Virus record (IMG/VR): IMGVR_UViG_3300042914_003164
Coordinates: 32,001 to 96,000 of that record
Strand: one strand, 5' to 3'
Length of the DNA stretch: 64,000 nt
Origin: a virus
A program made the position numbers and the translations under genes. The notes beneath the pieces are model-generated. The model saw nothing but the letters and a program-made list of their open reading frames with translations. It had not been told where the DNA came from and did not search any database. Position 1 is the first letter of the stretch, and each line of letters starts with the position of its first letter. Below, piece after piece: positions 1,711-53,578 of this stretch.

Positions 1711-2028
1711 ATGAGAAGCCTGTCAGATGAAATTGTTTACAGGATTTTGACGGAGACGTGCAACAACTCTGAAATGGCAAGGAGGGTTGGCACTACAAGG
1801 CAAACGGTTCAGCAGATAAGGACTGGAAAAATCTATTCAAGTCTTTTTCCAGAAATACCCAGAAATACAGGCACTGGTAACATGAGTTGCTATAAGTGTT
1901 ATCACAGAAGGAAAAATGTTTCGGAAGGGGATCCGAATCCATGCTCCTTTGATTTTCCAGAGCCACTTATAGTTGGAGTTTTTTATGCCAGGGAGTGCAA
2001 TCTTTTTCAGTCCTCTTCTGCTGGCTAG
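1711..2028 (+). CDS. HTH plus Cys-rich DNA-binding protein
   Basis: NSEMARRVGTTRQTVQQIRTG (HTH-like) followed by CxxC..C..C; directly upstream of terL. Confidence 0.55.
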   Translation: MRSLSDEIVYRILTETCNNSEMARRVGTTRQTVQQIRTGKIYSSLFPEIPRNTGTGNMSCYKCYHRRKNVSEGDPNPCSFDFPEPLIVGVFYARECNLFQSSSAG

Positions 2029-2052
2029 AATGCGCTATCTGTTTCCCTTGAA

Positions 2053-3544: not shown

Positions 3545-3593
3545 GTGCTGCGGTCTGTCGCTACAATCACCGCAAGGCTTTTGGACAACTTTC

Positions 3594-5276: not shown

Positions 5277-5307
5277 GCTATAGTCTCAATAGTCTCGTTT
5301 TGACTTT

Positions 5308-6573: not shown

Positions 6574-6823
6574 AAAGCCGAGGGGCGGCCTTGGTCGCTG
6601 GTTTGCCGAAAAGTGGATTGACGTAAAAACCGGAAAGCCATGCGGTAGACAGGCTGGCGAAAAACGCCGAAGCTACCCAGCCTGTCGGCCATCAAAGCGG
6701 GTTTCAGTCGATACCCCAAAAACAGCCGGAGAGCTATCGAAAAAAGAGAAAGAAAAGTTCAAGCGCGAAAAGACAGGCTCCAAGCGAATTGGCTATCAGC
6801 ATAAGCGCAAAAAGCGGTCCTAG
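6560..6823 (+). CDS. small basic protein (DUF5872-like)
   Basis: GLGRWFAEKWIDV...CGR...YPACRPSKRV..DTPKT motif; family name recalled, not searched. Confidence 0.7.
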   Translation: MAKSRKPRGGLGRWFAEKWIDVKTGKPCGRQAGEKRRSYPACRPSKRVSVDTPKTAGELSKKEKEKFKREKTGSKRIGYQHKRKKRS

Positions 6824-6846
6824 CATTAGCTGGAGGCACGAGAGAA

Positions 6847-7149
6847 ATGGCCCCTCGCCCTGTCAAAAACAAGCGCCGCACTGCGGCTTACTATGCGGCT
6901 AACCCGGAAGCTCGCAAAAAGAAAGCTGCCTATGATAAGAAGTATCACTCTACGCCGGAGCGCAGAAAGTATAGAGCGGCCTTGTCTGCAGAGCGCAGGG
7001 CGAGGGGTATTGATGGCAAGGGCGGCGGTGATCTGAGTCACACAACTGGCGGGGGGTTTAAGCGAGAGAACCCGTCAACCAATCGCGCAAGAAATGGCCA
7101 TGGTGGCAGGCGCAGATTGGCCAAGAGTGGTCGCAGGCCGCGCCGCTAA
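6847..7149 (+). CDS. Arg/Lys-rich protein with degenerate HNH-like motif
   Basis: DLSHTTGG...NRARNG. Confidence 0.65.
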   Translation: MAPRPVKNKRRTAAYYAANPEARKKKAAYDKKYHSTPERRKYRAALSAERRARGIDGKGGGDLSHTTGGGFKRENPSTNRARNGHGGRRRLAKSGRRPRR

Positions 7150-7173
7150 CCTTGCGAAAAAGGAAGCAGAACC

Positions 7174-7506: not shown

Positions 7507-7561
7507 GTGCTGATTGACCGAAGATGATCACTAGAATAAAGGCGTTCCGTTTTTTCTTCAA

Positions 7562-8009: not shown

Positions 8010-8097
8010 TGCCTTAGTGTTTACGGCCCAAGTCTAGGTGGGCAGAGGGGTTCCCACCAGCGCCCTAGACTTCGACCAGAGCCAACCCCTTGATCCA

Positions 8098-8531: not shown

Positions 8532-8540
8532 GGCTACTAT
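8532..8540 (+). promoter_or_regulatory. putative late promoter -10 box GGCTACTAT for major capsid gene
   Basis: Member of the recurrent (G)CTAnnnT motif; directly follows a terminator. Confidence 0.6.
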
Positions 8541-8550
8541 TTGGGGGAGA

Positions 8551-8598
8551 GAGGCAGTGCCTCGCAGCAAGGGCCTGAACGGTCCAGCAGCAGTGCTG
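8551..8598 (+). promoter_or_regulatory. leader hairpins with GC-AGT-GC loop
   Basis: GAGGC-AGT-GCCTC (8551-8563) and CAGC-AGT-GCTG (8588-8598); same motif at 12088. Confidence 0.5.
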
Positions 8599-8653
8599 TG
8601 AAGCTGAATCAACGGCGGCCTAGCCGCAGATTTATCCCCTCGCTTTCAAAACA

Positions 8654-9989: not shown

Positions 9990-10646
9990 ATGGCCTTTGT
10001 CTCGACACTGGGGGCGACTGACGCCAACTCCTACCTGTCGGTAGCAGAGGCCATCGAGCTGCTTGAGGTCTTGCCTCAGAGTTTTGGTGTTGCTGCCTGG
10101 CTGGACTTCACGGAAGAGCAGCAGGAGCAAACGCTGGTAGCTGCAACGATGGCGATCAACCCTTTGCATTGGAAGGGTCAGCCATCCTCTACCGAGCAGA
10201 GTCTTGCGTGGCCCAGGCGCGTCATTGCGGACCACTACTTTGTGGCCGATGACGAGCTGCCGATTGATTTTAAGACTGCCGTTGCCTACATGGCAGCATT
10301 TCTTGGTATCAATGGTGGCTACACAGGAATCGCTAACGCAGACGGCGGCTCTAAGAGGTATCGCAATAGCGAGTATGAAGAGGTTGAGCTTGGCCGAAGT
10401 GATCTAAGGGTCAAGTTTGATAAGAGTGGGGCGCTGCAGACTGGCGCCCTCTTCATACCGCCTTTTTGCATGGACATCTTTGCGCGATACATGATTCGCG
10501 GAGAATTTAACCAGCCCAGGGTCAGAAGGGAATCGAACGCAAGGATTGGTTACAGGGGATTCGTGGCCAGGCAGAAGGCTTCTGGCGTGCGATACATCAA
10601 TGGGCAGCTCTGGCCCTATGGCGGCACCTGGAGCAATAGGTTCTGA
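9990..10646 (+). CDS. head-tail adaptor (DnaT-like family)
   Basis: ANSYLSVAEA...LVAAT..WKG....QSLAWPR. Confidence 0.8.
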   Translation: MAFVSTLGATDANSYLSVAEAIELLEVLPQSFGVAAWLDFTEEQQEQTLVAATMAINPLHWKGQPSSTEQSLAWPRRVIADHYFVADDELPIDFKTAVAYMAAFLGINGGYTGIANADGGSKRYRNSEYEEVELGRSDLRVKFDKSGALQTGALFIPPFCMDIFARYMIRGEFNQPRVRRESNARIGYRGFVARQKASGVRYINGQLWPYGGTWSNRF

Positions 10647-11644: not shown

Positions 11645-12076
11645 ATGGATCACCAAAAGATATGCGCAGCGATTGAGAAACCATTTAACACCGCCTTCAA
11701 AGCGCTGACACCACCTGTCAAGATTTACTTTGATAATGTTACGGCAATGCCGCCTGATGCCCCCGGCGAGTATGTCAGGATCAATATCACATTTGGGATG
11801 ACAAGTGAAGACGCCCTTGGCTGCCTGCTTGATCGAGCAAGGGGTGCCATCATTGCCAGGATTTTTACGCCCAAGAATGCTGGCGCCGCTCGCGCAAGAC
11901 AACTTGCGACTAGCGCAAGAACTGTTCTGGAGGACCTGGCAAAGGGGCCAAAGGGTGTGTCTGGGATATTCCTAAGAACAAGAGATGTAGAGGGGCCAGC
12001 TTTCTTTGCTGATAATACCGAACCTCACTTTATGGCCCGCCTTGAGGCGACATGGCAGGCCAGTGATCTTGGCTAG
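11645..12076 (+). CDS. tail terminator protein
   Basis: IYFDNV...GAIIARIFTPKNAG; precedes the tail tube gene. Confidence 0.7.
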   Translation: MDHQKICAAIEKPFNTAFKALTPPVKIYFDNVTAMPPDAPGEYVRINITFGMTSEDALGCLLDRARGAIIARIFTPKNAGAARARQLATSARTVLEDLAKGPKGVSGIFLRTRDVEGPAFFADNTEPHFMARLEATWQASDLG

Positions 12077-12100
12077 GATTGTGACATCGGGCAGTGCCCG
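12071..12100 (+). promoter_or_regulatory. putative late promoter GGCTAGGAT plus leader hairpin CGGGC-AGT-GCCCG
   Basis: Same architecture as upstream of MCP. Confidence 0.55.
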
Positions 12101-12932: not shown

Positions 12933-12965
12933 GTTGCTATAGTAGATGGGCCTCCGATTATTCAC

Positions 12966-13544: not shown

Positions 13545-13581
13545 TTGGCTACGCTGGTGCTACTTGGGTCGATAGTGCGCC

Positions 13582-28264: not shown

Positions 28265-28319
28265 CCGAATCAGTCCAGAACGGCTTGGCTAGGCTAGTGG
28301 CACGCTGTTGGGATAAAAC

Positions 28320-33137: not shown

Positions 33138-33196
33138 TGGCCATGGTTCCGACCCTCAGCCAGAGCTAAGCTTATCTGCATCAGGAGCCCAAGGCA

Positions 33197-38489: not shown

Positions 38490-38544
38490 GGAAAGTCGCC
38501 TCGGCTGGCCTGGCTAGGATCGGGGTGTTTACGCCTCGACTCCC

Positions 38545-42685: not shown

Positions 42686-43603
42686 CTAAAAAACTATAGG
42701 TGACGCGATTCTGTCAATAAAAGCACGATCTCCCGCAAGACTCGCCTGATCACGCAAAAAGGTCCCCCTGAAGCCCGCCATAAGCAGGATGTCATGCCCC
42801 TGTTTCACTGCTGCTTGCAGACCCTGAACATTGCTGTTGAGTGGCCATGAGTGATCGGTGTCGAGTATTACAGCCTCTTTGGTATTTCTGAACTGCCCTT
42901 GATTGATTGCCGTGGCAGTAGGGCCAAACCAATCAGCCCCCGTTCTTTTCATCCATCTGGCCTCATTTTGCCCCCTAGATGCGCGGATCCCGCGTGCATA
43001 ACTAACACCAATGAGTTTATCACTCCATTTTTTCACCCATTTAACAACCTGACCCTGAAACCATCTAGTGGATGACGCCATGAGTTCATTGCCCACCTCA
43101 AAAACTACGTTGTCTCGATTGGCAAGTGTTTCCACACTACGCCTTACGTGCGCACGTTGATACCTGTTCCACCTGCCTTTTGTGTGAACTTGATCGTGGC
43201 TCTTTGGCCCGAGACCGTTGAAAGCATGGGTCTCCCAAGCCTTTGGAAAAATATCAGGAATGGATCCCTCAAAAAGGCTTACAACGGCAACTATGTTGCG
43301 CCTTTCTGCCGCTGCAACAGCTTTGTCTAGGCGGTGATAGTATGCGCCATTAAGCGAACCATCCTTCTTCCACGGCAAATCTTTAACCATTATCGTTCCG
43401 CGTGAATTTGAGCCCCACAGGCTACCATCAGCAATCATTGCTTTATTCTCAACAGTCCATAGCTTGGTGACATTGCCGGTGATCCTGTCAATACCAACAG
43501 TCTCTCCGTTCATCCTCTGAACAGTGTTCCATGTGTGGTCGCCAGCCAAGCGGATTGGCTTGCCTTTCCAGCGAAAACCTGAATTTTTTATGGACAAGGC
43601 CAT
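42686..43603 (-). CDS. glycoside hydrolase-like TIM barrel (GH5/clan A-like)
   Basis: Y..RLD..V..A..R.IV..VSLF, NVVFEVGNE acid/base motif, ILDTDH. Confidence 0.6.
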   Translation of the reverse strand: MALSIKNSGFRWKGKPIRLAGDHTWNTVQRMNGETVGIDRITGNVTKLWTVENKAMIADGSLWGSNSRGTIMVKDLPWKKDGSLNGAYYHRLDKAVAAAERRNIVAVVSLFEGSIPDIFPKAWETHAFNGLGPKSHDQVHTKGRWNRYQRAHVRRSVETLANRDNVVFEVGNELMASSTRWFQGQVVKWVKKWSDKLIGVSYARGIRASRGQNEARWMKRTGADWFGPTATAINQGQFRNTKEAVILDTDHSWPLNSNVQGLQAAVKQGHDILLMAGFRGTFLRDQASLAGDRAFIDRIASPIVF

Positions 43604-43643
43604 GGTTAGCAGTCATACAACCAACACCGTAGGCGATTAAGCC

Positions 43644-44582
43644 TCAAACTGCAGTAATTGAAAAGCTTTTTACAATAAATCTAAGCTTGTTAGTGATGAT
43701 CTGCAGTTTTTCCCTTACCGCTTGAGGAGTGCATCCAATTTGCTCAGCTATTTCTTTTGTGGAGAGCTGGTCTTCGCCTATTCCATACTTTTGCTTTATT
43801 ATTTGTTGCTCTGACTTCGTTAAAGCATTTATCGTCATCAATAGAAAGTTAATCTTTTCGCAGGTATCCTCGTTTTCTCTTATCTCAGACTCAACGTCAG
43901 CGCTAATAATATCTGCCAGCGAGCAGGTGTCTCTGAGGTTTGCCCTTCCGCCACTTGGTTTGAGGTCAAAAGAGATTATTACGGGATTCAAGGCCACTGC
44001 TGTTTGTATCTTCTCCGGGCTCTCTTCGTTAATAGCTTCGGCTATCTCAGTAAAAGATGGCTCTCGCATCAGCTCTGCGGAAAGCCTCGCTTTTGCCTCT
44101 TTCGCTTGCTTGATAGTCCTCTGTATATGCGCTGGGACCTTGATAGCACCTTCTTGTGATTCAATTGCTCTTGTTATGGCCTGTCTGATCCACCAGTAAG
44201 CGTATGTACTGAACTTGTAGCCCCTGCTTGGCTCAAACTTTTCCGCTGCTCTTGCCAAGCCTATAGCACCCTCCTGCATTAAATCCTGCAAAGTCATGTG
44301 AACTTGCCTTGCCTGAGACTTTTTTGCAATCGTGACTACAAGCCGCATGTTGGCCGAAATCATGCGATTTCTGGCTTTCAGTCCCCTCCTGGCAATTCTT
44401 CTTGACTGCGGATCAAGAGCCTTTAGCGATTCAGCAAGATTTGCGTCTGATACCTGATCAGCAATTTGATTCTCCCTCAAAAGCCTCATCATCTCCTGAA
44501 CCTGCGTACCAAGGATTATCTCTTCGTCGCAAGTCAGAAGAGGGACTCGCGCTACATCACGCATGTAGTCCTCGAAGCTCAT
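43644..44582 (-). CDS. phage sigma-70 family sigma factor (group 2/RpoS-like)
   Basis: Region 1.2 YM.DV.RVPLL..EE; region 2 NMRLVV.IAK, DLMQEG.IGL, GYKFSTYAYWWIRQAITR; regions 3 and 4. Confidence 0.93.
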   Translation of the reverse strand: MSFEDYMRDVARVPLLTCDEEIILGTQVQEMMRLLRENQIADQVSDANLAESLKALDPQSRRIARRGLKARNRMISANMRLVVTIAKKSQARQVHMTLQDLMQEGAIGLARAAEKFEPSRGYKFSTYAYWWIRQAITRAIESQEGAIKVPAHIQRTIKQAKEAKARLSAELMREPSFTEIAEAINEESPEKIQTAVALNPVIISFDLKPSGGRANLRDTCSLADIISADVESEIRENEDTCEKINFLLMTINALTKSEQQIIKQKYGIGEDQLSTKEIAEQIGCTPQAVREKLQIITNKLRFIVKSFSITAV

Positions 44583-45325
44583 GGCGCCAACCTTGCTTTC
44601 GAGTAGCGATGCTTTTCATACCATCCAGCAAGCTCTGGCATCCAATCACGAAACTCTTCCATTAAGAGTTCGCATAGCTGTCGAATCTCAAGCTGGGCGT
44701 CAAGTTTGCTCCTTAGATCAAAGAAGTGCATCAATGACCGAGCATTGAAGCTAACAACAAAGTGCTGCCTTGTATCAAATGGGATAATGGATCGCGCTTG
44801 CTCCTCCGGGCTGCCAGCTCTAATTCGCCTTGCATAAAGAATTGCAGAAATAAGGCAATGCTCTAGGTCTGCATCACGGTCTATTTTGTCATAAATGTAC
44901 CTTTTGCCATTGCGATCTCTGTACTCTCCCACTGGCCTAAGATAGAAGACTTCCTCCAGTCCTCTTGTTCCATTAGCCACATCACAGATGCGCTTGCCGG
45001 AGTACCTAAAAGATTGCACGTCCCAGGAAGTTGATACCCTGTGAGTGCGACCTTGTTGCATCACGGAATGTGGAAACCATCCCACACTAAACGTGATCTG
45101 GGGATGCTCGTAAGGCCCCATGTGACCCTTTTCGCCAGCAAGTAGATTCCTCACGCAAATCTCTGCAGCTTTTCCTTCCTCCGGCGGCTCCTCGTCTCCA
45201 ACAAAATCCTCGCTGTAGTCTTGGTGCATTGCGTACCAGACCACTTGATTTGGATTTGGAGTTCTTGTGAGAGTCTTTACCTTGAAAAATGGATCCACGG
45301 CGGGGTCGTGGCTGGGGGCAGCCAA
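44579..45325 (-). CDS. thyX: FAD-dependent thymidylate synthase
   Basis: H.GP.EH, RTHRV..WDVQSFRY, EQAR.IIP, N.RSLMHF.DLR, AQLEIR; start may be GTG 45298. Confidence 0.93.
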   Translation of the reverse strand: MAAPSHDPAVDPFFKVKTLTRTPNPNQVVWYAMHQDYSEDFVGDEEPPEEGKAAEICVRNLLAGEKGHMGPYEHPQITFSVGWFPHSVMQQGRTHRVSTSWDVQSFRYSGKRICDVANGTRGLEEVFYLRPVGEYRDRNGKRYIYDKIDRDADLEHCLISAILYARRIRAGSPEEQARSIIPFDTRQHFVVSFNARSLMHFFDLRSKLDAQLEIRQLCELLMEEFRDWMPELAGWYEKHRYSKARLAP

Positions 45326-45355
45326 ACCCTACTGACGGGCAAACGCAACTGTCAA
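45326..45355 (-). promoter_or_regulatory. sigma70-type promoter for thyX-sigma
   Basis: Minus strand TTGACA-N18-TAGGGT. Confidence 0.5.
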
Positions 45356-45368
45356 CACCGAGACCGGC

Positions 45369-45710
45369 CTAAGGCGTCCCAGTCTGCTGGTCGTTGTTTT
45401 GATGGACGGCGTAAATCGCCACCGATATACTGCCCGCGCCAACCAGCAGGGAGATGATCAGAGGGAGTGCCCAGCTGGCCAGTGAGAACCCGCCTGACTG
45501 CCTGCTGTAGTTGGTCTCCAGTGCCTGGATGCGATCGGTCAGCCGGTCGGTCCTTTCGGACTCTTTGTCGATCCGCGAGGACTGCAGGTTCAGGCGATCC
45601 AAGGTGGCTGCCGCCCCAACTTCAATAGCTTGGTGGACAGATGTGAGCTGGCCCTTCAGCTCGCCCAGGAGGACCCAGATCCTCTCGTTTTGATCGCTTG
45701 CTGAATCCAC
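45369..45710 (-). CDS. coiled-coil protein with C-terminal TM
   Basis: Heptad pattern then WALPLIISLLVGAGSISVAIYAV. Confidence 0.6.
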   Translation of the reverse strand: MDSASDQNERIWVLLGELKGQLTSVHQAIEVGAAATLDRLNLQSSRIDKESERTDRLTDRIQALETNYSRQSGGFSLASWALPLIISLLVGAGSISVAIYAVHQNNDQQTGTP

Positions 45711-47265: not shown

Positions 47266-47354
47266 AAAGCCCCCGCTGGCAAGGCAGGGGCTTATCTCTT
47301 TACCCAGCCAGATCGTAGCGCACCACCGATCAAAAGGCAAGCACTTCAACCCAA

Positions 47355-53156: not shown

Positions 53157-53554
53157 TTACAGTATGCGCCGATGGCTACGTCACAAAAGAGCCAAAGCTT
53201 GAGGAAGGTGACTATGGCAAGTTCATAGAACTCACCATTCGGGTTGCTACACCTGGGAGAGAGGTTCACTACATAAGTGGCAGGTTCTACGGTCGTAAAA
53301 TACGCCCAGTTGAAGAATTTATACATGGTGGTGACTATATTACCATGTCAGGTGCTATTACAAATATGTATCCCAGGGAAAAGGAGGGAGGCGAGAAATA
53401 CATACAAATCTATCTTAAGGATTGCTTTTACACACTGCCTCCCAAAATTGTTGGTGAGGCCGCCTTCCGTCGATCCCTCCCCGCCAGTCAAGAATCCTCA
53501 CCATCCGAGCTTGACGATTTCGGCCTTGAGGAGGATAATGAACCAGAGTTCTAA
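53153..53554 (+). CDS. divergent SSB-like OB-fold protein
   Basis: GYVTKEP...GD.I.MSG; acidic tail ending EF. Confidence 0.65.
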   Translation: MITVCADGYVTKEPKLEEGDYGKFIELTIRVATPGREVHYISGRFYGRKIRPVEEFIHGGDYITMSGAITNMYPREKEGGEKYIQIYLKDCFYTLPPKIVGEAAFRRSLPASQESSPSELDDFGLEEDNEPEF

Positions 53555-53578
53555 CCTCAACCAACCCCTTCACAACAA

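Follow-up and report, generated by a model that had tools for sequence, protein, structure and literature searches.

A primary-like sigma factor of a freshwater phage clade with an RpoS-type basic residue in helix 3.0 and a candidate late promoter class

Introduction

SPO1 gp28 and gp33/34, T4 gp55 and phiEco32 gp36 are the classical phage late sigma factors. In these cascades an early phage sigma redirects the host core polymerase to late promoters with a consensus of their own. These proteins are highly diverged or truncated and their motifs are unrelated, whereas the factor described here is near-complete and primary-like, with a specificity that seems shifted by a few residues only. Other phage-borne, primary-like factors of about 300 aa are the group 2 sigmas of cyanosiphoviruses (P-SS2 ORF113, S-CBS1/S-CBS3 rpsD4, KBS-S-2A and S-LBS1). 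As in the present locus, their genes adjoin nucleotide-metabolism genes, with dcd beside the sigma gene in P-SS2. To our knowledge, they have been annotated for 15 years without assigned promoters or role. The P-SS2 factor was presumed by its authors to read canonical sigma70 promoters (PMC2784084).

In RpoS, K173 contacts C(-13), and FliZ, with an arginine in the corresponding place of its helix, has the same C(-13) requirement (PMC6719511, PMC3367168). Cyanobacterial type 2 promoters consist of a -10 element only; in vitro, the group 2 sigma SigD uses one of them and SigA, which needs a -35 element, cannot (PMC2758279).

The phage sigma analysed here resembles RpoS by a basic residue at the same position of helix 3.0, and the boxes found before late genes resemble RpoS target promoters, which combine (G/T)-14, C-13 and TAnnnT with little -35 dependence. 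It differs from RpoS in having arginine instead of lysine, in being phage-encoded and in its apparent aim at virion genes. Its nearest cellular relatives are of the cyanobacterial RpoD/SigA type (at most 40% identity). It is RpoS-like at one position without being a member of that group.

Results and discussion

The sigma gene and its genome

We analysed a stretch of 64,000 nucleotides (the window) corresponding to bases 32001-96000 of a 109,690-bp IMG/VR record, estimated complete, of a lake phage. The layout is siphovirus-like, with a tape-measure ORF of 2677 aa and, on the plus strand, a long structural module. The features of the sigma locus are as follows:

43644..44582 (-): sigma-70 family factor, 312 aa, group-2-like, with regions 1.2, 2, 3 and 4 and without region 1.1
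44118..44120 (-): Arg155 codon (AGG on the minus strand), first turn of helix 3.0
43707..43736 (-): region 4.2 recognition helix GCTPQAVREK, residues 283-292 (canonical xSRERVRQx)
44579..45298 (-): thyX, flavin-dependent thymidylate synthase (Pfam Thy1, E=1e-40), likely start GTG 45298
45326..45355 (-): canonical promoter TTGACA-18 nt-TAGGGT before thyX-sigma, with G at -13

This is the only sigma gene detected in the 109.7-kb genome, which was searched for a second one. A search of the same genome for a T7-type polymerase detected none, a weak negative because its control was unable to score.

Pfam models recognize region 2 (PF04542, E=2e-18), region 3 (PF04539, E=3e-8) and region 1.2 (PF00140, E=1e-6), and the r4 and r4_2 models of region 4 stay just below cut-off (18-20 bits). 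In an AlphaFold model built with 43 relatives (mean pLDDT 81), the region 4 HTH is folded (helices 256-266, 275-282 and 286-308, pLDDT 87-89; the C-terminal HTH 275-308 is well folded) and the 3.2 linker is disordered. Foldseek aligned the model over its full length (about 310 columns) to SigA/RpoS chains of holoenzyme structures, the closest solved structures in the PDB being cyanobacterial SigA chains (E=3e-45). Family models placed the protein outside both described types: the best NCBIfam model, cyanobacterial RpoD/SigA TIGR02997, scored 235 bits against a cut-off of 384.5, and the RpoS equivalog TIGR02394 171.7 bits against 378.7, so that the protein is neither a member of the former nor an RpoS orthologue.

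A basic residue in helix 3.0 is fixed in a freshwater phage clade

Residues 147-157 of the phage sigma read IKVPAHIQRTI. Ungapped HMMER alignments place R155 opposite the glutamate of Thermus/Taq SigA (IRIPVHMVETI) and of cyanobacterial SigA (IRLPVHLYETI), which corresponds to E. coli sigma70 E458 and RpoS K173. Translation and alignments thus agree with a reading made from the sequence alone (the sequence-only reading), which had put an arginine at the E458 position. The RpoS trait, a basic residue at the K173 position, is present in the phage sigma as R155, and the C(-13) selection which that reading had ascribed to RpoS K173 has its counterpart in the contact described in the literature (PMC6719511, PMC3367168).

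A protein search over 5.8 billion proteins delimited a phage clade of about 117 cluster representatives with at least 42% identity, all of metagenomic origin. The clade is uncultured and freshwater. The closest relatives are 69-72% identical, one of them on a 94.5-kb contig, and the next matches outside the clade are cyanobacterial RpoD/SigA proteins at 40% identity. Of the 120 proteins listed, 75 have K at residue 155, 41 have R and one has Q, and E occurs in 3, all of them outgroups; K or R is therefore found in 116 of 117 clade members. The best 80 matches among 185,579 species genomes, in comparison, are all cyanobacterial (at most 40% identity) and all carry E at the 155 position and SRE/DRVR in helix 4.2. 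The same glutamate is kept in the many marine viral-contig sigmas examined (canonical HVTENLN and SRDRVR), unlike the phage sigma here, and the cyanosiphovirus group 2 sigmas are only 31-36% identical to it. No prophage with a K/R-type sigma was found in the GTDB genome scan, no close relative in one metagenome scan, and only near-duplicates of one genome (G011, see below) in an alignment-based viral scan. The nearest cellular homologues of the sigma, the sole basis for assigning a host, point to a cyanobacterium.

Region 2.3/2.4 of the protein is canonical (YKFSTYAYWWIRQAITRA) and is invariant or nearly so across the clade. A canonical region 2.3/2.4 reads TAnnnT in the sigma70 family, and recognition of TAnnnT by the phage sigma should therefore be unchanged.

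A -10 motif without a -35 element precedes late genes

The sequence-only reading had reported a C-TAnnnT motif without a -35 box before late genes. We found CTAnnnT 25-35 nt upstream of 12 of the 22 gapped gene starts of the late structural module, compared with 2 of the 77 gene starts outside it (at -25 to -35). The motif stands, and as for a late sigma regulon, a distinct consensus is largely confined to late genes. Shuffled sequences gave 0.81+-0.86 late starts with a box (maximum 5 in 2000 shuffles) and other offsets from late starts gave 0-1. The signal becomes visible only once distances to gene starts are taken into account; the genome as a whole shows no enrichment of CTAnnnT (224 against 276 expected, plus strand). 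The boxes and late-type boxes are as follows:

2025..2031 (+): ggCTAGAAT before terL; C(-13) kept in 8/9 relatives
3561..3567 (+): cgCTACAAT before portal
5278..5284 (+): gagCTATAGT before the scaffold gene; gagCTAnnnT conserved in relatives
6820..6826 (+): CTAGCAT
7146..7152 (+): cgCTAACCT; cgCTAAnnT conserved
7531..7537 (+): CTAGAAT
8031..8037 (-): late-type box CTAGACT, divergent partner of a box at 8065
8534..8540 (+): ttggCTACTAT, after a terminator and before the long leader of the major capsid protein (MCP) gene; GGCTAyTAT conserved
12073..12079 (+): ttggCTAGGAT before a tail-tube-like gene
12937..12943 (+): ttgCTATAGT directly after a terminator
13549..13555 (+): ttggCTACGCT directly after a terminator, before the gene of the tape-measure protein (TMP)
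28289..28295 (+): ttggCTAGGCT before a 1544-aa tail-fibre-like gene
33166..33172 (+): gagCTAAGCT
38514..38520 (+): ctggCTAGGAT
43626..43632 (-): late-type box CTACGGT in the 40-nt gap after the sigma stop, 29 nt before the start at 43603
42686..43603 (-): 305-aa gene behind this late-type box, with weak GH5/cellulase similarity (Pfam Cellulase E=8e-4, below cut-off)

The late-promoter logo built from 18 aligned sites of this genome shows T-16 (9/18), G-14 (11/18), C-13, T-12, A-11 and T-7, with a purine at the predicted +1 in 15/18. No -35 element was found at these 18 sites, where matches to TTGACA at 16-18 nt spacing equal background (mean 2.44/6, against 2.41 at random genomic positions). 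In addition, terminator hairpins and T-runs directly precede four of the boxes, where a -35 hexamer would not fit.

Other motif searches were not informative: gapped k-mers enriched between genes mainly reflected the depletion of stop codons and the heptamer arrays, and an EM motif finder settled on T-rich terminator tails. A 'CC' dinucleotide at -26/-25, present in 12/18 and 14/18 late sites of this genome, was rejected as a new upstream element. It is not conserved in G011, in G001 or in MCP-linked relatives, four of its occurrences come from terminator stems, and we treat it as unexplained. Separately, TATAAT is depleted genome-wide (1 and 3 copies on the two strands, about 6-8 expected) and TTGACA is over-represented (65 and 53 copies, with about 42 and 34 expected).

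C(-13) is enriched at late sites of the Arg-type genomes

Orthologous promoters were compared in 17 viral contigs whose MCP is 70-94% identical. These contigs retain GCTAnnnT upstream of terL, scaffold, g7174, MCP, tail tube, g12966 and TMP, with variable nnn bases and flanks. Of 34 non-redundant orthologous sites, 21 have C at -13, 5 each have G and T, and 3 have A. Occurrence of C(-13) in genomes with known residue 155 is as follows:

This genome (G000), Arg-type sigma: late sites 12/17, other sites 2/15
G011, Arg-type sigma: late sites 10/13, other sites 4/11
G001, G003 and G004 (same structural module), Lys-type sigma: late sites 5/12, other sites 10/32

Pooled, late and other sites differ (Fisher p = 4e-4), the signal coming from the Arg-type genomes. 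Among the Lys-type relatives, some orthologous late promoters have G or T at -13. C(-13) at the late sites of both Arg-type genomes fits a co-variation between residue and base, which the sequence-only reading had suggested as a check. In the Lys type C(-13) is only weakly enriched; the residue-to-base rule is therefore not a simple one. As judged from these sequences, it fits the Arg/His lineage and is ambiguous in the Lys/Asn lineage.

Four complete marine viral genomes with a Glu-type sigma (HVTENLN) provide an outside comparison. Their -10 elements also peak 25-35 nt before starts, with T (41%), A (26%) and C (19%) at -13. The contrast in -13 base between K/R and E genomes (p = 0.001) is confounded by G+C content, as it comes from what are essentially two clades, and is worth roughly a single phylogenetic contrast. 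Intergenic gaps are too scarce in S-CBS3 for this genome to inform the promoter comparison. A further lineage (L129/L130, MCP 72% identical) has mostly T or G at the late -13 position (TTAGACT, GTAAACT, GTATGCT, GTAGGGT) and keeps GGCTAATCT at the tail-tube box; these contigs are too short to show the sigma gene and the lineage represents a natural test case.

The sigma gene lies behind thyX and a host-type promoter

The thyX stop and the sigma ATG overlap by ATGA. The GTG at 45298 is the likely thyX start because an ATG aligns at the same position in G011. Upstream of it, TTGACA (45355-45350), an 18-nt spacer and TAGGGT (45331-45326) form the host-type promoter from which the sequence-only reading had the sigma gene transcribed. 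This promoter is present and has equivalents in both lineages. G011, an 86-kb relative with a sigma of the His152/Arg155 type, carries TTGACG-18-TAGGCT upstream of sigma, with a diverged spacer and a promoter-to-sigma-start distance of 776 nt compared to 773 nt here. The contigs of the Lys-type lineage all carry a pair of canonical promoters before sigma: a proximal one (TTGACC-17-TAnnGT) at about -132 nt and a distal one (TTGACx-17-TAnnAT) at about -450 to -474 nt. Hexamers and spacing are kept and the spacer sequence drifts. Since such a promoter is conserved upstream of sigma across lineages, there is good comparative evidence that the sigma gene would be driven by a -35-dependent promoter of the host type.

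In the Lys-type loci (L005-L016), the distal sigma promoter has C(-13) in most contigs and the proximal one has G. If host and phage sigma could both read a promoter of this kind, positive autoregulation would be possible in the Lys lineage. Between dcd and thyX, the window also carries a 113-aa ORF (45369-45710, minus strand) with a coiled-coil-like N-terminal part and a C-terminal hydrophobic helix, for which Pfam gave no match.

The region 4.2 helix is altered but constrained

As the sequence-only reading had it, GCTPQAVREK (residues 283-292) takes the place of the canonical region 4.2 helix. The set of residues which reads the -35 box in canonical factors (R584, E585, R586, R588 and Q589, E. 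coli numbering) is not retained: P, Q and A stand where R584, E585 and R586 would be, and the equivalent of R588 alone is kept. The clade nevertheless has a consensus of its own, (S/T)(Q/P/E)Q(A/S)(I/V)(R/K)(Q/E/D)(R/K), and among the listed proteins Q287 is found in 98/120 and R/K290 in 115/120. As far as the alignment tells, the helix is altered yet conserved, not decayed, which argues against region 4 having simply gone idle. To judge from this conservation, the helix has changed its function and not simply lost -35 reading, and region 4 probably still does something that the C(-13) model leaves unexplained. The proposal that the altered 4.2 helix accounts for -35-less reading is sustained in part: the -35-reading residues are replaced and the promoters have no -35 element, but the conserved helix speaks against an idle region 4.

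A proposed late switch and its alternatives

The sigma gene with its residues and the promoter class with its restriction to late genes are both conserved clade-wide. In the mechanism that we propose, host RNA polymerase with a host primary-type sigma would start at TTGACA-18-TAGGGT and transcribe thyX and sigma, translation of the latter being coupled to thyX. The phage sigma would then bind the host core polymerase. Its unchanged region 2 (YKFSTYAYWWIRQAITRA) would read TAnnnT, and helix 3.0 with Arg155 in place of glutamate would favour an extended -10 G(-14)C(-13), as does Lys173 in E. coli RpoS. The structural-gene promoters (T)GGCTAnnnT, which have no -35 hexamer and several of which lie directly behind terminators, would thus be opened. 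It would be the phage sigma rather than the host sigma which reads the late promoters, with Arg155 making the C(-13) contact. We lean, with reserve, towards this reading of GGCTAnnnT by the phage sigma with a contribution of R155 to the C(-13) preference. The assignment as a phage late sigma is reasonably supported by these comparisons and an early-to-late genetic switch through it is plausible; the 'complete' switch of the sequence-only reading is an over-statement because no host-sigma inhibitor was identified.

Alternatively, a host sigma of the primary or group 2 type could read the late GCTAnnnT boxes, as strong -10-only promoters of the host type. The phage sigma would then be an auxiliary host-like gene which tops up the sigma supply or redirects some host genes, as the authors of P-SS2 supposed of theirs. 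Such promoters are an established and common class in cyanobacteria (PMC2758279), the group 2 sigma of P-SS2 was assigned by its authors to canonical promoters (PMC2784084), and G or T is accepted at -13 in Lys-type relatives whose structural genes are the same. The parallel with SigD is real in that a primary-like alternative sigma likewise uses -10-only promoters; SigD-type host sigmas, however, keep the glutamate in helix 3.0 and a canonical 4.2 helix, and no C(-13) rule has been described for them. Reading by a host sigma also leaves unexplained the late-only C(-13)/G(-14) within one genome, the K/R fixed in the clade where each of the 80 nearest host-type sigmas has E, and the clade-wide replacement of the -35-reading residues. 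We consider it unlikely, though a serious competitor. That the boxes are another kind of signal, such as an RNA processing site or a protein operator, is hardly credible: they fit the TAnnnT -10 element at a fixed 25-35 nt before start codons, are strand-specific, often follow intrinsic terminators and have a purine at the predicted +1.

The phage sigma might also depend on a second determinant, either a co-activator or the 4.2 helix acting on a non-canonical upstream element, with Arg155/C(-13) being only part of the recognition. The conservation of the altered helix (Q287 and R/K290) would agree with this, as would the weakness of C(-13) alone in Lys-type relatives and the 'CC' at -26/-25 of late sites here. 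The latter, however, is not conserved in relatives and is owed to terminator stems at four sites, about 40 non-redundant late promoters yielded no other upstream motif, and no candidate co-activator was identified, so that we regard this possibility as quite improbable. A bolder proposal, which we put forward as doubtful, is that the phage clade turned a cyanobacterial primary-like sigma into an orthogonal late sigma by few substitutions: helix 3.0 would have exchanged Glu for Arg/Lys, converging on RpoS K173, and the 4.2 helix would have been rebuilt but kept under conservation. Far from idle, the rebuilt helix would have taken on a new job, such as binding a phage partner or an upstream element of non-canonical sequence. 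In the Lys lineage, the distal TTGACx promoters with C(-13) would then permit positive autoregulation.

With our preferred reading, in which the phage sigma opens the late promoters, the locus offers a residue-level hypothesis pairing one residue of helix 3.0 with one promoter base. What appears to be new, from the comparisons made here, is a large clade of freshwater phages in which residue 155 is invariably basic, one member apart, and the 4.2 helix is rebuilt, together with a mapped late regulon matching the predicted specificity and conserved host-type promoters before the sigma gene. If this is true, sigma specificity would have been re-engineered in nature through a few substitutions and the RpoS-type C(-13) rule would have arisen independently a second time; a rule for annotating late genes in a widespread group of uncultured lake phages would follow. 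A sigma/promoter pair that is orthogonal in cyanobacteria would be of practical interest as well.

Other late-type boxes and conserved leaders

The late-type box directly 3' of the sigma gene is not universally conserved in relatives. Another one at 53551-53557, in the context ccagagttCTAAyCTcaacca, precedes a non-structural gene, and the same is found near 10382 in G003, a diverged genome; conservation of this box before a non-structural gene in two diverged genomes indicates that the regulon is not limited to virion genes. On the minus strand (47267-47322), a strong terminator hairpin (AAGCCCCTGCC...GGGGGCTT) with TTTTT behind it lies about 20 nt downstream of a late-type box, gcgCTACGAT. 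This element (47322-47267) could correspond to a small late RNA of about 45 nt or to an attenuator at the divergent junction; the candidate small RNA folds no better than shuffles (z = -0.86).

Two leaders are almost invariant in relatives L118-L134, where their flanks have diverged: the long MCP leader (window 8541-8653, GAGAGAGGCAGTGCCTCGCAGCA ... GCAGCAGTGCTG) and the hairpin of the tail-tube leader (window 12080-12100, GGGCAGTGCCCG). Rfam gave no family match in the window, both leaders included. As judged by their conservation, they are probably conserved 5'-UTR structures.
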